Shown piece after piece: positions 44,112 through 54,851 of a DNA stretch of 64,000 bases. Within the stretch, counting starts at the first letter, position 1; the number at the start of each line of letters is the position of its first letter. The stretch is taken from contig JAGWPW010000056.1 in the NCBI GenBank assembly GCA_028870315.1, forward strand, positions 8,683 through 72,682, written 5' to 3'. Position numbers and translations under genes: made by a program. The notes under the pieces are model-generated. The model ran no database searches and had not been told where the DNA came from. It worked only from the letters and a program-made list of their open reading frames with translations. Source of the DNA: Sphingomonadales bacterium (lineage in GTDB: Bacteria > Pseudomonadota > Alphaproteobacteria > Sphingomonadales > Sphingomonadaceae).

Positions 44112-46559
44112 TCAGAACTTCCTGCCGACCTTCAAGCCGAATTCGCGCGGCAGTGTCGGATAGGCGCGGGCGAATTGCGCGCAGGTGGAAGGGATACAGG
44201 TCGTGTTGAGGCTGAGGATGCCGCGTTCGTCGAAGGCGTTGGTGACATAGGCCTCCCAGTGCCACAGCCCGAGCTGCTCCCCGAGCGAGAAATCGACCGT
44301 GGTGAAGCCGGCGGTCTGGAACGGCACCGGGGTTGCCGGTTGCGGCTGCACGAAATAGGCATCGGTGCCCGACTGGTGGTTGACCGAAGCCTGGAGATAG
44401 GGCTTGGCGCCTTTCCATTCCCAGTGATAGCGCGCGGTGAGATTGCCCTTGAACTGCGGCTGCACCGGCAGCCGCGTCCCCGACGGAATATAGATGCCCA
44501 GCGCGCAATTGGGATTGCCGGTGGTGTCGATATTGCAGAAATCGGTCTTGGTGCGCGCATCGGTATAGGCCGCCGATCCCGAGAAGGTCAGGTGATCGAG
44601 TGCGAGGTTGAAATCGCCCTCGACCCCGCGCGAATTTGCCCGGCCGACGTTGTAGATGCTGAGCACGCCGTTCGAATTCGGCGTCGTCAGGCTGATCTGC
44701 ACATTGTGCCATTCCTCGTCGAACAGCGCGAGGTTGACGGTCAGCTTGCGGTCGAACCACTGCGTCTTTGTCCCGATTTCGTAATTGATGATCGTGTCGG
44801 GGCTGTAGGGGTTTACCTGGGGCAGCCGGTTGATGCCGCCGGGACGATAGCCGGTCGAATAGGTGGCATAGACGAGCTTGGTCGGGTCGATCTTGTAGGT
44901 CAGGGTGAGGCGGTGGGTTTCGCCCGATTCATCGGCGATCTTGTAATATTGCGCGCAAGGCAGGTTGGGATCGGCGCTCACCGGGCAGTTCGCCAACCGG
45001 CCGGCGGTTCCCGAGAAGCCCTGCGATGAGTTCTTGGCGATGAACAGCCGCAGCCCCGCCTCGAAGGTCAGATTGTCGAGAATGTCATAGGCAGCGTCGG
45101 CGAAGGCGGCGTAATCGCGATCGACGCGAAATTCGCGCGAGCAGAAGATGTCGCTGTCCTGTCCCTGATACTGGCAGCGCGGCACCGGCACGCTGCCATC
45201 GCCGGTGACGAAATTGGGGATGTAATAGTCGGCGGAAATGCGGTCGGTCTGGCGCTGCATGAACAGCCCCGCGGTCAGCCGGAACGGTTCGCTTGCCGGC
45301 GAGGACATGCGAAGCTCGTGCGAGACCTTCGTGTAATGATGGTGGACGTGATAGACCTGGCTCGGATCGACGTTCTGGCCATTGGCGTTGTAGAAGCTGG
45401 TGTAGGCCGGCCCCAGCGATTCAAAATAGCTGACCGTGTAGCCCGAATAATCCTGCTCGGTATCGACCTCGCGGTCGAAATAGCCGCCGGCATAGGTCAC
45501 GTCCCAGTTGCCCAGCTTGCCATGGACGGTCAGCGCCGCCTGCACCCAGGAATCGTCGTTGTGCTCGGGCGTATAGTCCTGGACCCTGAGGTCGCCCGCC
45601 GGCGGATAGAGCGGATCATTGCCCGTCAGCGGCCCGTAGAGGAAGGTGCCATGCGCGCGCTGGTCCTGGTAGATCACGCTTGGCGTCACCGTCCAGCTGT
45701 CGTCGAGATCGATGCCGAGCGCAGCGCGCCCGCCATAGGTCTCGGTATCGTTGAAGTTCTTCTTCACATAAGGGGCGTTGCTGACCGCGACCGTGGTCGC
45801 ATTGCCGTTGACGTCGAGCGCCGGATAGGCACGGGTGCCGGGGATATTGCTGATATAGCCGCCGTCGCGCTCGTAGAAGGCCGAGGCGCGGAACGCCAGC
45901 CAGTCGTTGATCGGAATATTGACGAAGCCGTCCAAATTCGTCCCGAAGGAGTTCGAACCCTTGCCGAAGGTCGTGCCCGAGGCATCGACCCCGGCCTCGA
46001 ACTTGTGCGTCGGCTGGTTGGTGATGAGCCGCAAGGTGCCCGACAGCGAACTCGCCCCGAACAAGGTCCCCTGCGGCCCGGCCAGCGCCTCGATGCGGCT
46101 CATGTCGTAGAGATGGACATCGACCGCGCCGCCGATCGTGGTCAGCGGCACCTCGTCGAGGAACAGCGCGCTTGTCGGTTGCGAGCCGGCGAAGGCGCCG
46201 TTGTAATCGCTGCCCGAGGTGATGCCGCGGAAATAGATCTGCGCCTGGCTTGGCCCATAGGACTGGAACGAGACGCTGGGCAGCAGCTTGGCGTAATCGT
46301 CGAAATTCTCGACCTCATGCTGTTCGAGCTTGGCCGCGGTCAGCGCCTGGATGCTGATCGGAACCTTCTCAATATTCTCCTCGCGCTTGTTCGCGGTGAC
46401 GACGATTTCGGAACTGTTGGCGGCGCTCGCATCGGTGGCGGCGGGCGGGGCCTGCTGCGCGAGTGCCGAAGTTCCTGAAAGCGCCGTGCCCGAAAGCAGC
46501 GCCGCCATCGCGCCCGCCTGCCAAAACCCGATGCCGCGCGTTGCGAACCCCTTGCGCAT
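44112..46559 (-). CDS. TonB-dependent receptor
   Basis: Signal peptide, EIVVTANKREE, RIEALAGPQGTLFGASSLSG, C-terminal Phe (GRKF). Confidence 0.93.
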   Translation of the reverse strand: MRKGFATRGIGFWQAGAMAALLSGTALSGTSALAQQAPPAATDASAANSSEIVVTANKREENIEKVPISIQALTAAKLEQHEVENFDDYAKLLPSVSFQSYGPSQAQIYFRGITSGSDYNGAFAGSQPTSALFLDEVPLTTIGGAVDVHLYDMSRIEALAGPQGTLFGASSLSGTLRLITNQPTHKFEAGVDASGTTFGKGSNSFGTNLDGFVNIPINDWLAFRASAFYERDGGYISNIPGTRAYPALDVNGNATTVAVSNAPYVKKNFNDTETYGGRAALGIDLDDSWTVTPSVIYQDQRAHGTFLYGPLTGNDPLYPPAGDLRVQDYTPEHNDDSWVQAALTVHGKLGNWDVTYAGGYFDREVDTEQDYSGYTVSYFESLGPAYTSFYNANGQNVDPSQVYHVHHHYTKVSHELRMSSPASEPFRLTAGLFMQRQTDRISADYYIPNFVTGDGSVPVPRCQYQGQDSDIFCSREFRVDRDYAAFADAAYDILDNLTFEAGLRLFIAKNSSQGFSGTAGRLANCPVSADPNLPCAQYYKIADESGETHRLTLTYKIDPTKLVYATYSTGYRPGGINRLPQVNPYSPDTIINYEIGTKTQWFDRKLTVNLALFDEEWHNVQISLTTPNSNGVLSIYNVGRANSRGVEGDFNLALDHLTFSGSAAYTDARTKTDFCNIDTTGNPNCALGIYIPSGTRLPVQPQFKGNLTARYHWEWKGAKPYLQASVNHQSGTDAYFVQPQPATPVPFQTAGFTTVDFSLGEQLGLWHWEAYVTNAFDERGILSLNTTCIPSTCAQFARAYPTLPREFGLKVGRKF

Positions 46560-46724
46560 TTCGTCTTGCCCCCCTGAAAATTTGCTCCCTCAACCAGCAT
46601 ACTGCGCGGCCGCCAGGATTTATGCAAGCCGCTTGCTGCACTGCAACAACGCTTGCCCCCACGTTGTTTCCTTCGGGCCACAGCCGCGGTTTGGACCGCC
46701 CGGCAAAAAGCGCTAGCAAGCGGC

Positions 46725-48302
46725 ATGTCCCGCGATGCGCTCGACGCCCGGCTTGCCGCCGCCACCCGCAATCCGCAGTTGATGCGCGCAGCCCTGGCGC
46801 TGCATCGCGACCGGCTGGCCGAAGCCGAGCCGCTTCTGCGCGCCTGCCTCAGATCCGACCCCTTCGATGTCGCGGCCATCCGCCTTATGGCCGAACTCGC
46901 CGCCCGGCTCGGACGGCTCGATGATGCCGAGACGCTGCTGCGCCGCACGCTCGAACTCGCGCCGGGCTTCGGGGCCGCGCGGATCAATCTCGCCACCGTG
47001 CTTTTGCGCCGCAACCGCCCGACCGAGGCGCTGGAGATGCTCGATTCGCTCGATCTCGCGCATGACGAGGACAACCCCAACCTGCGCGCCGCGCTGCATG
47101 GCCGGCTCGGTGATTTCACGGAAGCGGCAGCGCTTTACGCAGCGACGCTCGCACGCTTTCCCGATACTCCCAAGGTCTGGCTGTCGTATGGTCATGTGCT
47201 GAAGACGATCGGCCGTTTCGACGAGGCGGTCGCCGCCTATCGCCGTGCGCTGGCGCTGGCGCCCGCTTTCGGCGAGGCTTGGTGGTCGCTTGCCAATCTC
47301 AAGACGCTGCGCTTTGCCGACGAGGATCGCGAGGCGATGGAGGTGGCGCTCGCCCGTGGCGGGCTTGCCGCCGAGGACCGCTTCCACCTCGAATTCGCGC
47401 TTGCCCGTGCGCTGGAAGATGCGGGCGAGCATGCCGCCGCCTTCGCGCGCTATGCCGCAGCGAACGCGCATCGCCGCGCGCTCGTCCGCTACGATGCCGC
47501 CGATACCACCCGCCGCGCCGCACGCATGGCGGAATGCTTCGATGCCGCCTATTGGGCGGCGCATGACGGCGGCTGCCCGGCGCCCGATCCGATCTTCATC
47601 GTCGGCCTGCCGCGCGCCGGATCGACGCTGATCGAGCAGATCCTCGCCAGCCACAGCCAGGTCGAGGCGATCACCGAACTGCCCGACATTCCCGAACTGT
47701 GGGGACGGCTGGGCGACGATCGCTTCAACCAGGCGCGCGGGCTCGATGCCGCGGCGCGCGGCGCGATCGGCGCGGAATATCTTCGCCGCATCGCCCCGCA
47801 GCGCAGGACCGACCGCCCGTTCTTCATCGACAAGCTGCCGAACAACTGGCTCTACATCGGCTTCATCAAGGCGATCCTGCCGCGCGCGAAGATCATCGAT
47901 GCCCGCCGGCATCCGCTGTCGGCGGGCATCGCCAATTTCCGCCAGCATTTCGCGCGCGGCCAGCACTTTACCTATGACCTTGCCGATCTTGGCCATTATT
48001 ACCGTGATTACGTCGCGCTCACCGCGCATTTCGACGCGGTGCTGCCGGGCGCGGTCCATCGCGTGTCCTACGAACGCATGGTCGAGGACAGCGAGCGCGA
48101 GATCCGCGCGCTGCTTGGCGCACTCGCGCTGCCGTTCGAGCCCGGCTGCCTTGCCTTTCACGCGACCGAGCGGCCGGTGCGCACGCCGTCTTCCGAACAG
48201 GTGCGCAGCCCGATCTATCGCGAGGGCACCGCGAACTGGCAGCCCTATGCCGCCTGGCTCGGCCCGCTGCGCGCGGCGCTCGGCGATCTCGACCAGTCAT
48301 AG
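46725..48302 (+). CDS. TPR-containing sulfotransferase (Sulfotransfer_3 / TPST-like)
   Basis: N-terminal TPR repeats, PIFIVGLPRAGSTL (5'-PSB loop), FIDKLP.N, RRHPL, VSYE, RTPSSEQVR. Confidence 0.9.
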   Translation: MSRDALDARLAAATRNPQLMRAALALHRDRLAEAEPLLRACLRSDPFDVAAIRLMAELAARLGRLDDAETLLRRTLELAPGFGAARINLATVLLRRNRPTEALEMLDSLDLAHDEDNPNLRAALHGRLGDFTEAAALYAATLARFPDTPKVWLSYGHVLKTIGRFDEAVAAYRRALALAPAFGEAWWSLANLKTLRFADEDREAMEVALARGGLAAEDRFHLEFALARALEDAGEHAAAFARYAAANAHRRALVRYDAADTTRRAARMAECFDAAYWAAHDGGCPAPDPIFIVGLPRAGSTLIEQILASHSQVEAITELPDIPELWGRLGDDRFNQARGLDAAARGAIGAEYLRRIAPQRRTDRPFFIDKLPNNWLYIGFIKAILPRAKIIDARRHPLSAGIANFRQHFARGQHFTYDLADLGHYYRDYVALTAHFDAVLPGAVHRVSYERMVEDSEREIRALLGALALPFEPGCLAFHATERPVRTPSSEQVRSPIYREGTANWQPYAAWLGPLRAALGDLDQS

Positions 48303-48316
48303 GCAAATCGAATGAC
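48296..48316. promoter_or_regulatory. LysR-type dyad (T-N11-A) upstream of the luxE-like gene
   Basis: GTCAT-N11-ATGAC perfect arms about 75-95 nt upstream of ATG 48391. A LysR gene lies in the same unit. Confidence 0.55.
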
Positions 48317-48390
48317 CGCGAGCCGGCGATCGGCTTTGCAGCGCCGGCCGCGCGGCGTAGCCTTCGGGCAAACCGCCAGAGGAGCCTGCC

Positions 48391-49779
48391 ATGAGCCTGT
48401 CGTTGCTGCCCGACAATCCGGGCGCCTGGACCTATCGCACCTGGGCCGACCTGATGGCGATCACGCGCGAGGAGCGCGAGCGGCTGCAACTGGAGGCTGT
48501 GCGCATTTCCTTCGCGCGACTGCGCGGGCGCATTCCGGCGCTGACGAAGCTCGCCGAGCGCCAGGGCGTCGAGCGGATCGATCGAATCGAGGACGTGCTG
48601 CCGGTGTGCTTCGACCATCGCGTGCTCAAGAACTATCCGATCCAGATCATCGAGAACCGCGATTTCGCCAGGCTGACGAGCTGGCTCGACCGGCTTACCG
48701 CGCATGATCTCAGCCGTATCGACCTGACCGGGCTCACTACCATCGAGCAATGGCTGGCGCGGCTCGAAGCCTTCGGCATGCTTGTCACCTATTCGAGCGG
48801 CACCACCGGCAAGCTGTCGTTCGTGCCGCGCTCGCGCGATGAGCTGGGGCCGTGGAAGTTCCATTTCTTCAACGTCAATTACGCGGCGAACGGGGTCGAT
48901 CCCTGGACCACCCGGCTGCCGACCTTCTTTCCCGGCTATCGCGGCGGCTATCAGACGATGCTCAAGATGATGAGCCTGTTCAACGTCGAGATGGCCGGCG
49001 GCGAGGAGCATTACTACACGCTTTACGACAGCCATATCCCCGCCGACCTGATGGCGCTGTCGGGCCGGCTGCAATCGGCCGAGGACCGCGGCGAGCTGCG
49101 CGAGCTGGGGCTCGACCCGGCGCTGCTCGAACAGCGCCAGCGCATGCTCGAACAGGGCCGCCGACGCGAGGCCGACATGGAGGCGTGGTTTTCCAGGCTG
49201 ATCGACGAATTTCGCGGACGGCGGGTAAAGATCGGCGGCACCTTCGCCGATCTTTACCGGGTGGCGCGCGCCGGGCTAGACAAGGGGCTGAGTTGCGCCT
49301 TCGCGCCGGGCTCGATCGTGGCCGGCGGCGGCGGGATGAAGGGCTACAAGGACGCGCCCGACGACTGGGAGGAGCAGGTCAGGCACTTCTTCGGCGTCGA
49401 TCGCCTCGGCAATCAATACGGCTTTTCCGAATGCATCGGCAATGCGCCGCTGTGCGAACACGACTTCTTCCACCTTCCGCCCTATTCGGTGCCGCTGCTG
49501 ATGGATGCGAACGGCGCCGCGCTGCCGCGCGAGGGGGTGCAGAAGGGGCGGCTGGTGCTGGTCGATCCGATCCCGCAAAGCTATTGGGGTGGCTTCACTT
49601 CGGGCGACGAGGTGACGATGCATTGGGAAGAGGATTGCGCCTGCGGCTGGAAAAGCCCGCGCATCGCCAAGACCATCCGCCGCTTCGCCGAGAACGAGGG
49701 CGGCGACGACAAGATCACCTGCGCCGGCAGCCAGGCAGCCTATAATGAATTCATGGCCTTCGTTTCGGGAGAAGGATGA
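48391..49779 (+). CDS. LuxE-like acyl-protein synthetase (ANL superfamily)
   Basis: YSSGTTG ATP loop, GGGMKG, YGFSE, FTSGD, C.CG near the C-terminus. RBS gagga. Confidence 0.72.
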   Translation: MSLSLLPDNPGAWTYRTWADLMAITREERERLQLEAVRISFARLRGRIPALTKLAERQGVERIDRIEDVLPVCFDHRVLKNYPIQIIENRDFARLTSWLDRLTAHDLSRIDLTGLTTIEQWLARLEAFGMLVTYSSGTTGKLSFVPRSRDELGPWKFHFFNVNYAANGVDPWTTRLPTFFPGYRGGYQTMLKMMSLFNVEMAGGEEHYYTLYDSHIPADLMALSGRLQSAEDRGELRELGLDPALLEQRQRMLEQGRRREADMEAWFSRLIDEFRGRRVKIGGTFADLYRVARAGLDKGLSCAFAPGSIVAGGGGMKGYKDAPDDWEEQVRHFFGVDRLGNQYGFSECIGNAPLCEHDFFHLPPYSVPLLMDANGAALPREGVQKGRLVLVDPIPQSYWGGFTSGDEVTMHWEEDCACGWKSPRIAKTIRRFAENEGGDDKITCAGSQAAYNEFMAFVSGEG

Positions 49780-51257
49780 TGGACACCGCGCTCGACATCC
49801 CGATCATCGCCCGCGGCCGGATCATCATGCCGGGCGAGCATGGTGTCATCTACAAGGGGCGCGGCGGCGCCGATTTCCGCCAGGCCGATCCGCATCGCCA
49901 TATCCATGACCTCGTGCTCGGCGATCCGACCCGGCTGCGCGATCTCCACGAGACGCCGATCGCCGAGGTGATCGAACTGCTCGCCGAACTCGGCGGCCGG
50001 TTGCATCTCGACGACAATGCGCTGCTTCAGGAAAGCTTTGCGCTGGCGCTGGCGGCGGGCGGGCTGGCCGAGCCGATCCTGCGCGGCGTCTATGATGGCT
50101 TGCCCGCGATGTTCGAACGTGAGGCGATGCGCGCACTGGCCGACCGGACGATCGGGCTTGCCTGTCTCGACGGCTGGGTGCCCGCGCCCGCCCCGCACGA
50201 AAGCGTGAGCCTGCGCGCGGTCGGCACGCGCCAGCTCCATATCACCGCGGGCAATGTGCCGGTGGTTGCCGCGCTGACCGTGATCCGCGCCGGGCTCACC
50301 AAATCCGACATTCTCATCAAGAGCCCGTCGAACGATCCGCTTACCGCCAATGCCATCGCGCGCACGCTGATCGGGCTCGCGCCCGAGCATCCGCTGACCC
50401 GGCACATCGCGGTCGCCTACTGGAAAGGCGGCGATGAATTGATGGATTCGCAGATCGTCCGCATCGGCCGCATCGACAAGATCACCGCCTGGGGCGGGAT
50501 GAGCTCGGTGCGCCATATCCAGAAATTCCTCACTCCCGGGATCGATCTCACCGCGCTCCACCCGAAATATTCCTTCTCGCTGATCGGCCGCGACACCTTC
50601 GCCAGCGAGGAGGCGATCGCGGAGGCGGCGATCGGGCTGGCGACACTCGCCGGCTTCTACAACCAGACCGCCTGCGCCAACACCCGCATCGTCTATGTCG
50701 AAAGCGGCACCGACGAGGCGGCGCTGGAGCGGGTGATCGCGCTCGGCCGCCGGATGCTGCGCGGCTTTGCCGATCTGCCACCGCTGCTGTCGGTGCCGTT
50801 CGCGAGCCCCAACCGCGAGCTTGAAGCCGAACTCGCGGCGATCGCGCTCGAAGAGGATTTCTATCACGTCGAAGGCGATACCTGCGCCGGCGGCTTCATC
50901 GTCTCGAAGTTCAACGGCCGCGTCGAATTCCATGACAAGCTCGCCAACCGGGTGGTCAATTTCGTTCCCGTCGATGACCTTGCCGATGCGCTGCGCTGGT
51001 GCGACGACACCAGCCAGACGGTGGGCATCTATCCCGAAAGCGACCGCGCACGGCTGCGCGATGCCTTCGCGCTTGCAGGCGTGCAGCGGCTCGTCCCGCT
51101 CGCCGGCGGCGATGCGCTGACGGTCTATGCGAATGCGCATCACATGCCGCCCGGATCGCCGCATGACGGGATCGAGCCGATGCGCCGGGCGATGCGCTGG
51201 GTGATCGACATGCGCCCGCCCGCGCATCACGCCGCGCTCAGCATCGCGGCGGAGTGA
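49776..51257 (+). CDS. LuxC-like acyl-CoA / acyl-protein reductase
   Basis: HITAGNVP, IKSPSNDP, YWKGGD, AWGG, NQTAC (catalytic Cys region), HDG..P.R. Confidence 0.85.
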   Translation: MMDTALDIPIIARGRIIMPGEHGVIYKGRGGADFRQADPHRHIHDLVLGDPTRLRDLHETPIAEVIELLAELGGRLHLDDNALLQESFALALAAGGLAEPILRGVYDGLPAMFEREAMRALADRTIGLACLDGWVPAPAPHESVSLRAVGTRQLHITAGNVPVVAALTVIRAGLTKSDILIKSPSNDPLTANAIARTLIGLAPEHPLTRHIAVAYWKGGDELMDSQIVRIGRIDKITAWGGMSSVRHIQKFLTPGIDLTALHPKYSFSLIGRDTFASEEAIAEAAIGLATLAGFYNQTACANTRIVYVESGTDEAALERVIALGRRMLRGFADLPPLLSVPFASPNRELEAELAAIALEEDFYHVEGDTCAGGFIVSKFNGRVEFHDKLANRVVNFVPVDDLADALRWCDDTSQTVGIYPESDRARLRDAFALAGVQRLVPLAGGDALTVYANAHHMPPGSPHDGIEPMRRAMRWVIDMRPPAHHAALSIAAE

Positions 51258-51266
51258 GCGCGGGGG

Positions 51267-52199
51267 GTGGACACCGCGCAGCTGCGGGCCTTCGTCAAGA
51301 TCGCCGAGGCGGGCTCGATCAGCCGCGCGGCGGTCTCGCTCGGCATCGCGCAGCCCTCGCTCAGCCAGCAATTGCTGCGGCTGGAGGACGAAATCGGCAT
51401 GCGGCTGTTCGACCGCACCCGCCGCGGCGTCACCCTGACCGAGGGCGGGACGGTGTTTCTCGAACACGCGCGCCATCTTCTCCATGCAACCGAGCTGGCG
51501 ATCGCCGAGACCCGCCACGCGCGCGGCGAGGTGCGCGGCCGGGTGGTGCTGGCGATGCCGCCATCGCTCGTCCGGCTGGTCGGCGCGGCGCTGCTCGATG
51601 CGATCGCCCGCGATACGCCAGGGGTGGGCTTGCGGCTGGTCGAAGCCTGGTCGGGAAGCATTCGCGGCTGGATCGAGGCGGAAAAGATCGACCTCGGCGT
51701 GATCTATAATACCGGCCCGCTGCCGCAATTGCTGGCACGCCCGCTGATGAGCGACGCGCTGGTCGTCGCCCGCCCGCCCGGCGACGGCGCGCAAGCCCTC
51801 GCCTTTGCCGCGCTTGCCAGGGCGCGCCTGATCGCTCCGGGGCCGCAGCACGGGCTGCGCCAGCTGCTCGACCAAGCGGCGGCGCGCGCGGGGGTCGCGC
51901 TGGCGATCGTCGAGGAAATCGATTCGCTTGACGTCACCTTCGAACGCGTCAGCCAGGGTGCGGGGCTCGCGGTGCTGCCGCAGGGCATCGCCGAAGCCGC
52001 GGCCGCTGCGGGCCTGGTCGCGCTTGCGGCGCTCGAAGAGCCCGGATTGCAACGCAGGCTGATGGTGATCCGCAATCCGGGGCATGTGCTGACCCATGCC
52101 TCGGTGTCGGTCGAAAAGGCGTTGCGCAAGGTTCTGGCGCAGGCGATCGCGCGCGGCGGCTGGCCGGCAAGCATGGAGGGTCCAGGCGATGGCGAATGA
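51267..52199 (+). CDS. LysR-family regulator (Nac/TcuR-like)
   Basis: QLRAFVKIAEAGSISRAA..L.IAQPSLSQQ...LE, LFDRT.RGV.LT. Confidence 0.93.
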   Translation: MDTAQLRAFVKIAEAGSISRAAVSLGIAQPSLSQQLLRLEDEIGMRLFDRTRRGVTLTEGGTVFLEHARHLLHATELAIAETRHARGEVRGRVVLAMPPSLVRLVGAALLDAIARDTPGVGLRLVEAWSGSIRGWIEAEKIDLGVIYNTGPLPQLLARPLMSDALVVARPPGDGAQALAFAALARARLIAPGPQHGLRQLLDQAAARAGVALAIVEEIDSLDVTFERVSQGAGLAVLPQGIAEAAAAAGLVALAALEEPGLQRRLMVIRNPGHVLTHASVSVEKALRKVLAQAIARGGWPASMEGPGDGE

Positions 52200-52941
52200 A
52201 GGCATGGCGCTTGCCGGCAGGGTCGCGCTGGTCACGGGCGCCGGGCGCGGCATCGGCCGGGCGATCGCGCTGCGGCTGGCGCGCGACGGCGCGCGTCTCA
52301 TCGTCCATCACAGCGCGAGCGCGGCGGGCGCCGCCGAAAGCTGCGCGATGATCGCCGATGCCGGCGGCGAGGCGATCGCGCTGCGCGCCGACATCGCCCG
52401 GCGCGAAGACGTAAAGGCGATGTTCGCGGCGATCGACCACGGCTTCGGCCGGCTCGACATCGTCGTCAACAGTGCCGGAGTCAGCGCGGGCGGCCCGCTC
52501 GAACAGGTCGAGGAAGACCAGCTCGAATGGCTGCTCGGGGTCAATCTGCGCGGGCCGCTGTTCGTGGCGAGCGAGGCGGCGCGGCGCCTTGGCGAAGGCG
52601 GGCGGATCATCAATCTTTCCTCTAGCCTCGCCAAATTCCCGATCGCCGGATCGGGAATCTATTCGGCGACCAAGGCCGCGCTCGAAAGCTTCACCGAAAG
52701 CTGGGCGAAGGAGCTGGGCGCGCGCGGCATCACCGTCAACACCGTCATCCCGGGCGCGACCGCACCGGGCATGGCCGAGCGCACGCTCGCCCAATGGCGC
52801 GCGATATTCGAGAAAGCCTCGCCCTTCGGCCGCATCGGCACCGCCGTCGAGATCGCCGAGGTGGTCGCCTTTCTCGCCTCGCCGGCGGCAAGCTGGGTTT
52901 CGGGCGCGCATATCCTGGCGAATGGTGCAGCGAACGCCTGA
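52189..52941 (+). CDS. Short-chain dehydrogenase/reductase
   Basis: TGAGRGIG, NSAG, YSATK. Confidence 0.93.
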   Translation: MANEGMALAGRVALVTGAGRGIGRAIALRLARDGARLIVHHSASAAGAAESCAMIADAGGEAIALRADIARREDVKAMFAAIDHGFGRLDIVVNSAGVSAGGPLEQVEEDQLEWLLGVNLRGPLFVASEAARRLGEGGRIINLSSSLAKFPIAGSGIYSATKAALESFTESWAKELGARGITVNTVIPGATAPGMAERTLAQWRAIFEKASPFGRIGTAVEIAEVVAFLASPAASWVSGAHILANGAANA

Positions 52942-53171
52942 GAGCCCGCTTCAAAGCGCGCGAAACGCCGTCTTGCGCCACCGTTCATGCGCGAACCGCG
53001 GCAGCACCGCTGCCTGGCGATGCCGACGCGTTGGCAAGCCATGGGCCGTGGCACCGGGCGTCTATGGATGTTATGACGGCAACCTCGGGCCGACGCGGGC
53101 GCCCGATCAGCTGGTCCTGATCAGCCAAGACCCGCTCCACCTTGCGAAAGCAGGTCGCGGAGCGTTGTCTG

Positions 53172-54851
53172 ATGTCCTGGAACCCATTTTCCGTTGCCCG
53201 CAAGCGCTGGCTCCTTGCCGGTGCCACCGGCCTGTTGGTCCTTGCGCTGCTGGGCTTTCAATGGATTGTGCCAGGGCTTTCGGTCGCGCGGCACGAGCCA
53301 CCCCGCATCGAGGTGGTGGCGGCGACCTGGCTGCTGCACCACAGTGTCCCCGCCTCGGCCAGGGCCAGGGCAAACCCGCTGGGCGCGCACCCCGATCCGG
53401 CGGCGGTTGCCGCCGGGCACGATCTATTCGTGCAAAAATGCGCAACCTGCCATGCCTATGACGGCGGCGGAAAAACCGAAATGGGCGCGGGCGAATATCC
53501 ACGGCCACCGGCCCTGCGCGCCCTGCTTCCCGCAATCAGCGACGGCGAGATTTTTTACCATATCCGCAATGGCATTCGCAACACCGCCATGCCCGCATGG
53601 AACATGCCGGACGACCAGATCTGGCGCCTGGTTGCCTATCTGCGCTCGCTGCCGCTTGTCGTTCCGCAGTTGCCTGGCGCAATCGCGCCGCAGCAGGAAG
53701 CGGCGGTCCGCGAGGCCCATTATGTTGGCTCGGCAAGCTGCCGGCCCTGCCATCAGGAGATCTATGCGCGCTGGGCCAGGACGCGGATGGCCAATGTAGT
53801 GCGCGACCCGCGGACGCACCCCGACGCCATCATTCCCGACTTCTCGAAGCCCGATGCGCTGGTGAAATTCAAGGTTGGCGACATCGCGCTGGTCTATGGC
53901 AGTCACTGGAAGCAGCGGTATTTCAGGAAATCCGGCGACAGCTATACGCCGTTTCCGGTCCAGTGGGACATCACCAGCAAAAAATGGCTCCCCTATCATG
54001 TTCCCGACAAGGGCGGCGACTGGTGGGCCAAATTCTATCCCGATACGGGCGATAATTCGAACCGCCCCACCGGCCCGCTTTGCGATGGCTGCCATTCGGT
54101 GAACTACAACATTGCCACAGGGGCGGTCGCCGAGTGGAATGTCGGATGCGAAATGTGTCACGGCGCGGGCAGCGCGCATGTCGCCAATCCGGCGATGGTC
54201 AACATCCTCAACCCGGCGCGACAAGGCTATGTGAAGGCGAACGACACCTGCATCCAGTGTCATTCGCAGGGACGGCCGCTCAAAAACCCGATCGCGGGAA
54301 AATATTACGACTGGCCGGTGGGTTACCATGCAGGGCTGAAACTGCAGGATTTCTGGAAGCTGGAGGATCACAAGCCTGGCGAGGTAAGTTTCACCCATTT
54401 CCCGGACGGCACGGCCCACAAGAATCGCATGCAAGGCAATGATTTCGTGCAGAGCCTCATGTATACCCGAGGAGTAACCTGCTTCAGTTGCCACGACCCG
54501 CATGGCAGCAGCAATGAGGCGATGCTGCGCAAGCCAGTGACCGAAATCTGCCTGTCATGCCACGGCCCCAACACGCAAAACGGGCCGCACACCGATACGA
54601 TCGCGGCCCATACGCATCATCTGCCGGGCAGCCCGGGCAGCCAATGCGTCGCCTGCCATATGCCGAAGATCGCCCAGACGCTGGGCAAGGTGAACGTAGC
54701 CAGCCATACGTTCCGTTTCGTCATGCCGGCGCAGACCGAGAAGCTGGGCATCCCGAATGCCTGCAATGTCTGTCATGCCGACAAGAGCCCGGCCTGGGCT
54801 ACCACCGCGATCAAGGGATGGGCGGATCGGTCCCCGTGGCGCGCGGATTAG
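53172..54851 (+). CDS. Membrane-anchored multiheme cytochrome c, 9 CxxCH motifs
   Basis: N-terminal TM. CATCH with distal AMPAW in a monoheme domain, then CRPCH, CDGCH, CEMCH, CIQCH, CFSCH, CLSCH, CVACH and CNVCH. Confidence 0.9.
   Translation: MSWNPFSVARKRWLLAGATGLLVLALLGFQWIVPGLSVARHEPPRIEVVAATWLLHHSVPASARARANPLGAHPDPAAVAAGHDLFVQKCATCHAYDGGGKTEMGAGEYPRPPALRALLPAISDGEIFYHIRNGIRNTAMPAWNMPDDQIWRLVAYLRSLPLVVPQLPGAIAPQQEAAVREAHYVGSASCRPCHQEIYARWARTRMANVVRDPRTHPDAIIPDFSKPDALVKFKVGDIALVYGSHWKQRYFRKSGDSYTPFPVQWDITSKKWLPYHVPDKGGDWWAKFYPDTGDNSNRPTGPLCDGCHSVNYNIATGAVAEWNVGCEMCHGAGSAHVANPAMVNILNPARQGYVKANDTCIQCHSQGRPLKNPIAGKYYDWPVGYHAGLKLQDFWKLEDHKPGEVSFTHFPDGTAHKNRMQGNDFVQSLMYTRGVTCFSCHDPHGSSNEAMLRKPVTEICLSCHGPNTQNGPHTDTIAAHTHHLPGSPGSQCVACHMPKIAQTLGKVNVASHTFRFVMPAQTEKLGIPNACNVCHADKSPAWATTAIKGWADRSPWRAD

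Follow-up and report, generated by a model that had tools for sequence, protein, structure and literature searches.

We analysed a 64,000-nucleotide window of a Sphingomonadales genome (GenBank assembly GCA_028870315.1, contig JAGWPW010000056.1, positions 8,683 to 72,682 of the forward strand), which carries on its + strand, at 48391-52941, a four-gene operon whose possible role in carboxylic-acid reduction is considered here. The first gene (48391-49779), recognized from its open reading frame (ORF), a family profile, and its fold, encodes a LuxE-like adenylate-forming acyl-protein synthetase of 462 aa (P0001), and the second (49776-51257) encodes a LuxC-family acyl-thioester reductase of 493 aa (P0002) identified by Pfam. 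The stop codon of the former overlaps the start codon of the latter as ATGA at 49776-49779, as an original prediction made from the sequence alone had stated. The same prediction had placed a LysR gene and a short-chain dehydrogenase/reductase (SDR) gene tightly behind the pair, and this layout was confirmed. The gene for a LysR-type transcriptional regulator (310 aa, 51267-52199) begins with GTG 9 nt past the luxC stop, and a classical SDR gene (~246-250 aa) ends at 52941. Translation of the SDR probably begins at ATG 52189 or 52204 and not at 52096, which would make its gene overlap or abut the lysR stop. The window has a GC content of ~67%, and we picked genuine genes around the operon by G+C content at third codon positions (GC3); all four operon genes have a GC3 of 0.84-0.85, which is typical of coding sequence in the window.

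The reductase matches the Pfam LuxC family (PF05893) over profile positions 2-401 of 401 with 146.6 bits against a cut-off of 21, and its sole PDB sequence match at E<=0.01 is LuxC of Photobacterium phosphoreum (7xc6_A, E=8.7e-27). In this alignment, YNQTAC, which contains Cys300, pairs with YDQQAC of 7xc6_A, and HITAGNVP pairs with HLLAGNVP; the cofactor-binding motif ITAGNVP lies at residue 156. Because YNQTAC aligns with YDQQAC, Cys300 would be the counterpart of the acyl-accepting cysteine, in line with the NQTAC cysteine picked out by the original prediction. The aligned cysteine has chain index 285 in 7xc6_A; in the published numbering, the catalytic LuxC residue is Cys296, and Cys286 in V. 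harveyi (PMC9157457). Against the NCBIfam LuxC equivalog (NF052251), the protein scores 133.1 bits, far under the cut-off of 750, and it is therefore not a canonical lux-operon LuxC. Together, the profile and alignment results make a solid case that the operon's reductase is a genuine LuxC family member.

The synthetase has no NCBIfam match, and a single-sequence PDB search with it returned only noise. We used 43 diverse members of its family both to build a family profile and to count residue conservation. With the profile, the best PDB match is LuxE (7xc6_E, E=1.3e-10), with PaaK2 at 1.7e-9, and only 13 of the 43 members match the Pfam LuxE family (PF04443) at E<=0.01. An AlphaFold model of the protein (predicted local distance difference test score, pLDDT, 89.4) has PaaK1 and BT_0428 as its closest folds, with EhpF also matched. 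The SSGTTG loop named in the original prediction is kept as YSSGTTGK at residues 134-141, and G140, K317, E347, D406, and R431 are invariant or nearly so across the 43 members. GGGMK317 aligns with GGGWK238 of LuxE 7xc6_E in the profile alignment, and R431, present in 40 of the 43 members, stands before the tail like Arg355 of LuxE, which forms the catalytic pair of that enzyme with Lys238 (PMC9157457). In the profile alignment, PaaK2 continues for ~150 residues beyond query position 394 and the LuxE-like protein for 68, and the chain after the aligned core measures ~41 residues in the LuxE-like protein, 35 in LuxE, and ~150 in PaaK2. The LuxE-like protein therefore lacks the C-terminal subdomain of the ANL superfamily of adenylate-forming enzymes, as LuxE does. 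Judged by profile and motifs, the LuxE-like protein represents a distinct sister family of LuxE with the same design.

The tail of the synthetase reads GGDDKITC(444)AG, has its cysteine 13 residues past R431, and contains the only disordered stretch near the C-terminus (residues 441-446, pLDDT <50). Cys444 is kept in 35 of the 43 members as DDK[ILV]xC. The original prediction had drawn attention to a C-terminal C.CG motif instead, and this motif is indeed present, within DCACGW at residues 415-420, and is better conserved than Cys444 (Cys416 and Cys418 are kept in 41-42 of the 43 members). However, the acylated cysteine of LuxE lies in a different motif, TRxxKGCxLS (PMC9157457), to which C.CG does not correspond, and C.CG is probably not the acylation site. 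It sits in the folded part of the protein and belongs to a near-invariant Cys/His cluster made up of Cys355, His361, Cys416, and Cys418, a probable structural or metal site. Based on the alignments and the model, Cys444 appears to be the likelier candidate for the acyl carrier. Neither the LuxE-like nor the LuxC protein has a Pfam match to PP-binding or NAD_binding_4.

The LysR protein matches Pfam HTH_1 (77.8 bits) and LysR_substrate (100.4 bits) and reaches no NCBIfam equivalog, the top one being NAC at 146 bits against a cut-off of 309. The SDR matches adh_short (164 bits) and adh_short_C2 (188 bits), carries the motifs TGAGRGIG, NSAG, and S...YSATK, and likewise reaches no NCBIfam equivalog. 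Ahead of the operon lies an 88-nt promoter and leader region (48303-48390, + strand) with a ribosome-binding site, AGAGGAG, at 48378-48384. A putative, degenerate LysR-type box, ATAGGCAAATCGAAT (48299-48313, + strand), overlaps the stop codon of the sulfotransferase gene that precedes the operon. When the upstream regions of 14 orthologous loci were aligned, they had in common, at the same position, the sequence ATAGG-N5-CCTAT, which is a T-N11-A inverted repeat, the type of site bound by LysR proteins. Other blocks kept across these regions are TTCT, a TATCCT-like block, and a GAGAGGA ribosome-binding site. No riboswitch was found in the window, where the only Rfam families are two tRNAs.

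The LuxE-like family comprises 862 clusters at 50% identity, and scanning genome contigs with an 8-sequence alignment of close LuxE-like relatives gave 511 loci in species-representative genomes. RefSeq labels its members "hypothetical protein." Many Novosphingobium genomes encode orthologues 77-89% identical to the window's protein, and so do assemblies that bear the names Sphingomonas palustris, Phenylobacterium, and Rhizomicrobium. Fourteen loci of other species repeat the LuxE-LuxC-LysR order, some of them with an alpha/beta-hydrolase gene inserted, and ~12 continue with an SDR gene; since the order recurs to this extent, the four-gene arrangement is not due to chance. The flanking genes vary between genomes, and the unit therefore consists of these four or five genes. 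Of 121 Sphingomonadaceae genomes that were sampled, 11 had any LuxE-like member, at up to four copies per genome, and none of the 121 had an orthologue above 57% identity; a genome of the same genus held only a 39% paralogue. The LuxE-like family is thus accessory. In the sphingomonad loci, LuxC lies directly downstream of 43 of 81 LuxE-like genes and within three genes of 48.

The pairing extends to distant relatives of 27-38% identity, which occur on plasmids of Caballeronia, Mycobacterium avium, and Novosphingobium pentaromativorans and in metagenomes. LuxC adjoins the LuxE-like gene in all three distant plasmid relatives and in three of the four distant metagenomic relatives that keep the tail cysteine, and the surroundings often include an alcohol dehydrogenase (zinc type or SDR) or an aldehyde:ferredoxin oxidoreductase. 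LuxC is absent from all six recoverable contexts of LuxE-like members lacking the tail cysteine, which counts in favour of the mechanism proposed below; the association between tail cysteine and LuxC adjacency has a rough one-sided Fisher p of ~0.01, obtained from short contigs and non-independent samples. Beside LuxE/LuxC, the alcohol dehydrogenase is an SDR in the window, an SDR on contig C152 of the same genome, a zinc-type enzyme in Caballeronia, and an SDR in M. avium. Since these partners for the alcohol/aldehyde step differ in fold, the link to aldehyde chemistry would be functional and not merely historical. The luciferase-free LuxE/LuxC design is widespread, with the operon as one of many such systems, and the role proposed for it is plausible. 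We also observed a metagenome-derived locus, apparently from an anaerobe, that encodes a thiamine pyrophosphate enzyme, a LuxE-like protein, LuxC, a second LuxE-like protein without the cysteine tail, an aldehyde:ferredoxin oxidoreductase, and a ferredoxin (L103:3153-11431); here too, the family stands in a setting centred on aldehydes. At a further locus (L098:1-3913), a LuxE-like gene without the tail cysteine and without LuxC is followed by a FliR-family flagellar export gene and is preceded by a large protein with a polymorphic-toxin-tip-like C-terminal region and a 108-aa ORF. The NCBI pipeline attaches a "bioluminescence" gene ontology (GO) term to the LuxC homologues of non-luminous Novosphingobium, Caballeronia, and Mycobacterium avium (L092, L093, and L094), and this term is a systematic annotation artefact.

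The window's own genome carries three more LuxE-like genes and two more LuxC genes beyond the window. On C152:13421-23013, a TetR gene (minus strand) is followed by a LuxE-like gene, a 1.5-kb insert, a second LuxE-like gene, LuxC (Pfam, 177 bits), an SDR gene, and an acyl-CoA-synthetase-like gene, the last two named by eye from motifs. The insert holds reverse-strand ORFs, one of them MarR-like in appearance, and the tandem LuxE-like copies look like a duplication split by insertion. On C110:16039-19140, a sulfotransferase gene is divergent from a LuxE-LuxC pair. Sulfate-ester enzymes thus stand beside LuxE/LuxC both here, as a tetratricopeptide repeat (TPR)-sulfotransferase, and on C110, and on a Caballeronia plasmid (L093:3464-10919) a sulfatase and a formylglycine-generating enzyme lie upstream of LuxE-LuxC-alcohol dehydrogenase. 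Their presence may be chance or a hint about the substrate. A survey of paralogue neighbourhoods across 80 related loci revealed that ~56%-identical paralogues are found together with TetR regulators, TauD-family dioxygenases, cytochromes P450, pyrroloquinoline quinone-dependent alcohol dehydrogenase (PQQ-ADH), aldehyde dehydrogenase (ALDH), and luciferase-like monooxygenases (LLMs). Amidohydro_2 proteins are also among the catabolic-type neighbours of paralogues. TauD-family genes are frequent partners of the paralogues, and their relatives include sulfonate and alkyl-sulfate dioxygenases.

The original prediction had described the operon as lacking luxA, luxB, and luxD, and the absence extends to the whole genome, which is 99.6% complete. 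No gene in it matches the luxD family (PF02273), and its top match to the luciferase alpha model (NF052254) reaches 103 bits against a cut-off of 600. The genome contains 16 LLM genes, none of them on a contig with LuxE or LuxC. We rejected a luciferase served by the pair from elsewhere in the genome, as there is no luxA, luxB, or luxD. The top luciferase-alpha-like gene (~103-111 bits) lies between TauD-like and Rieske-type oxygenase genes (C5:26924-30298), and a tandem LLM pair is found at C137:12721-15041; neither is a true luxAB.

Around the operon, a TonB-dependent receptor gene (44112-46559, - strand) and the TPR-sulfotransferase gene (46653-48302, + strand) lie upstream, and a multihaem cytochrome c gene (53142-54851) lies 3' of the operon after a 200-nt gap. 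Beta-oxidation genes (acyl-CoA dehydrogenase and FadB-like) are found 2-6 kb downstream on the - strand. We considered the sulfotransferase, the TonB-dependent receptor, and the multihaem cytochrome c as operon members and rejected all three, since none is a conserved neighbour; in the case of the sulfotransferase, the LysR box and the leader also lie between its gene and the operon. The multihaem cytochrome c has no homologue in the same-genus genome G050 and is not kept beside the operon in other genomes. A comparison with G050 for an empty site gave no usable synteny.

The gene order, homology, motifs, synteny, upstream box, and lack of luxA, luxB, and luxD described above were observed directly. 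On this basis, we propose, with moderate confidence, that the locus is a LysR-controlled accessory operon for a two-component carboxylic-acid reductase of the LuxE/LuxC type together with an aldehyde/alcohol oxidoreductase. In this proposal, the LuxE-like enzyme would adenylate a free carboxylic acid with ATP, and the acyl group would move to the synthetase's own Cys444 on the flexible C-terminal arm (GGDDKITCAG). The arm would then hand the thioester to Cys300 of the LuxC-type partner, which would reduce it with NADPH and free the aldehyde, and the SDR would most likely turn the aldehyde into an alcohol. Such a route would proceed without a carrier protein, phosphopantetheinyl transferase, coenzyme A (CoA), luciferase, or LuxD. 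The in-operon LysR protein would bind the predicted ATAGG-N5-CCTAT-type box before luxE and turn the operon on in the presence of the substrate or an intermediate. We infer the chemical steps, the direction in which the pathway runs, its cofactor, and the effector from homology to Photobacterium LuxC-LuxE and from gene context. The paralogues' neighbours and the patchy, multi-copy distribution suggest that the substrate is probably a non-fatty acid of secondary catabolism, aromatic or alicyclic, and not myristate. The original prediction had suggested a non-standard acid, and the catabolic-type neighbours of the paralogues make such a non-fatty or xenobiotic substrate plausible. It had also suggested an acid-to-aldehyde-to-alcohol route, which fits the alcohol dehydrogenases that recur beside the pairs, but the coupling of LuxE to LuxC is not obligatory, as described below.

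Several observations weigh against this proposal. The original prediction had treated both proteins as lux homologues, and this stands for LuxC and for a LuxE-type partner, but the LuxE-like protein scores only 19 bits against the Pfam LuxE cut-off of 24.9, over its C-terminal half only, and by sequence appears about as near to PaaK CoA ligases as to LuxE. The LysR box of the window has two mismatches and a degenerate second half (CGAAT for CCTAT), and two-mismatch matches in the window are not above chance (10 found, 6.7 expected); the box is supported because of its positional conservation, not by the match count. About 40% of the sampled LuxE-like members have no LuxC within three genes. 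The comparison of tail cysteine with LuxC adjacency given above draws on few, short, and phylogenetically non-independent contigs. Moreover, a LuxC-free operon is conserved in more than 10 Novosphingobium genomes (e.g., L016:1468-11042, L021:1105-10896, L023, L012, L014, L002, L038, and L041), with the order AraC, Amidohydro_2, (cupin), SDR, (SDR), LLM, Abhydrolase_3, LuxE-like, SDR, SDR, and with the LuxE-like gene duplicated in L038 and L041. Its LuxE-like protein is ~80% identical to the window's and is nested inside the LuxC-linked clade, so the synthetase is evidently able to work without LuxC in cis. Several neighbours of the paralogues either make aldehydes (TauD family) or oxidize aldehydes and alcohols (PQQ-ADH and ALDH), which renders the physiological direction uncertain, and acid reduction is odd within a catabolic cluster. 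Finally, we found no biochemistry in the searchable literature for the LuxE-like family or for any luciferase-free LuxC/LuxE pair.

We considered whether the module runs oxidatively, or LuxC acts alone. In that case, the SDR would convert alcohol to aldehyde, LuxC would be either an acylating aldehyde dehydrogenase or simply an acyl-CoA or acyl-acyl carrier protein (ACP) reductase, and the LuxE-like protein would do something else, for example activate the acid again. In favour of this, the paralogous loci hold enzymes that make aldehydes and enzymes that oxidize aldehydes and alcohols. Acyl-CoA is accepted by LuxC in vitro (PMC9157457; bioRxiv 10.1101/2025.08.11.669332), and TabE, an ALDH-like protein grouped with LuxC in a sequence similarity network, is a stand-alone acyl-thioester reductase (bioRxiv 10.1101/2025.08.11.669332); the many LuxE-like genes without LuxC would fit as well. 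However, an ATP-using adenylating partner has no part in an oxidation, the conserved four-gene unit includes no CoA ligase, ACP, or thioesterase, and the pair is joined by the ATGA overlap and co-occurs across phyla down to 27-38% identity. In addition, LuxC-type enzymes keep only the cysteine of the ALDH catalytic residues and are placed among reductive or reversible subfamilies (PMC12041015). Altogether, we regard this explanation as unlikely. The conserved LuxC-free operon raises another possibility, namely that the LuxE-like protein is mainly a self-acylating shuttle or ligase whose cysteine arm serves LuxC here and SDRs, LLMs, or TauD-type dioxygenases elsewhere, with an aldehyde as one outcome of several. 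LuxE-TauD and LuxE-LLM adjacencies without LuxC are consistent with this, as is a distant member with the tail cysteine that lies beside Amidohydro_2, an SDR, CoA-transferases, and a P450, with no LuxC. On the other hand, LuxC in the window is translationally coupled to the LuxE-like gene, some genomes with the LuxC-free operon have a LuxC a few genes away, so that LuxC may be supplied in trans, and to our knowledge there is no precedent for LuxE-type arms working with other enzymes. We therefore consider such a shuttle quite improbable.

A broader version of this idea would have the whole LuxE-like family serve aerobic secondary catabolism as general acyl shuttles that need no carrier protein. 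Here, an aromatic or alicyclic acyl group, not a fatty one, would be held in thioester linkage on the cysteine arm and be presented to LuxC, to give an aldehyde, or, in LuxC-free operons, to tailoring enzymes such as LLMs, TauD-type dioxygenases, or SDRs. Sphingomonads would then reduce carboxylates, and perhaps go on to a Baeyer-Villiger-type oxidation and hydrolysis of the ester, to remove or rework carboxyl groups beyond the reach of beta-oxidation or decarboxylases. We offer this as a speculative idea that has only a small chance of being correct. Still more doubtful, and in our view very unlikely, is that the operon encodes an ordinary fatty-acid reductase making long-chain aldehydes or alcohols for lipids, for wax, or for a luciferase elsewhere. 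Canonical LuxC/LuxE use myristate (PMC9157457), and beta-oxidation genes do lie a few kilobases downstream, but on the opposite strand and not as conserved neighbours. The near-complete genome has no luxA, luxB, or luxD, and the LuxC protein stays far below the equivalog cut-off. Furthermore, presence in 11 of 121 genomes at up to four copies is atypical of lipid housekeeping, and the neighbourhood consists of regulators and xenobiotic-type oxidoreductases instead of lipid genes.

If the two-component reductase proposal is correct, the operon would provide a compact, two-protein carboxylic-acid reductase that needs neither a carrier domain nor a phosphopantetheinyl transferase. An inducer-responsive regulator and an aldehyde reductase to go with it would be supplied by the same operon, and the system could be of use in biocatalysis and as a biosensor part. 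Likewise, a sizeable family now left as "hypothetical protein" beside an "acyl-CoA reductase" bearing a misleading "bioluminescence" GO term would gain a function. One would further have to ask why ATP and NADPH are spent by aerobic degraders on reducing acids, a question that is testable, as cultured Novosphingobium strains carry the operon.

Among known systems, one of the closest is LuxC-LuxE of Photobacterium phosphoreum (7XC6; PMC9157457), in which an adenylating enzyme without the ANL C-terminal subdomain works with an ALDH-fold reductase. In common with it, the operon's proteins have equivalents of Lys238 and Arg355 (K317 and R431), a cysteine on a flexible tail, and an aligned LuxC cysteine, and the genes are adjacent and overlapping. 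In contrast, the operon has no luciferase or LuxD, has the order E-C with LysR and SDR genes, and probably acts on a substrate other than a fatty acid; its LuxE-like protein is ~90 residues longer, with the extra C355/H361/C416/C418 cluster and a DDKIxC tail in place of TRxxKGCxLS. LuxC/LuxE pairs without luciferase are not new in themselves, contrary to what the original prediction implied, since they have been reported in flagellin glycosylation islands (PMC7874193). The polar flagellin glycosylation islands of Aeromonas and Enterobacteriaceae carry luxE and luxC without luciferase, alongside an SDR of the 3-oxoacyl-ACP-reductase type, and their presumed product is a lipid-like glycan decoration (PMC7874193, PMC4875605). 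Genes for an ACP, an AMP-dependent synthetase, and glycosyltransferases are present in these islands and missing from the operon. LuxA-like genes with luxC-, luxD-, and luxE-like neighbours have been described outside the classic luminous clades (bioRxiv 10.1101/2023.02.27.530324). Our literature search found no paper on the sphingomonad LuxE-like family or its LysR-linked operon; the operon layout is thus conserved but undescribed, whereas luciferase-free LuxC/LuxE pairs as such are already known.

A second parallel is EhpF/EhpG of Pantoea agglomerans, from the D-alanylgriseoluteic acid phenazine pathway, where an ANL enzyme without its C-terminal domain is encoded beside an aldehyde-dehydrogenase-family gene (PMC11278526). 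EhpF structures (PDB 3HGU, 3HGV, and 3L2K) are among the fold matches of our model, with template modelling (TM) scores, normalized to the target, of 0.46-0.55, weaker than those of PaaK. EhpF differs from the operon synthetase in being ~350 aa long and in belonging to a biosynthetic phenazine cluster; the operon has no phenazine genes. In a 2010 study by Bera et al., the EhpF/EhpG pair was reportedly proposed to reduce phenazine-1,6-dicarboxylate to a 6-formyl compound, which would set a precedent for this design acting on an aromatic acid. The best overall fold match is PaaK (PDB 2Y27, 2Y4O, and 4R1L; Foldseek E ~1e-12, TM 0.54-0.60), with which the synthetase has the SSGTTGK loop in common. 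Unlike the synthetase, PaaK has a C-terminal subdomain of ~100 residues for CoA thioesterification, and we propose that the cysteine-bearing tail and the LuxC partner here replace the CoA of PaaK. Carboxylic acid reductases (CARs) combine adenylation, carrier, and reductase domains in one protein that is activated by a phosphopantetheinyl transferase. The net reaction that we propose for the operon, acid + ATP + NADPH -> aldehyde, is that of CAR, but it would be carried out by two subunits that have neither a carrier domain nor a terminal reductase domain of the SDR type; the reductase has the ALDH fold, and a protein cysteine would stand in for phosphopantetheine.

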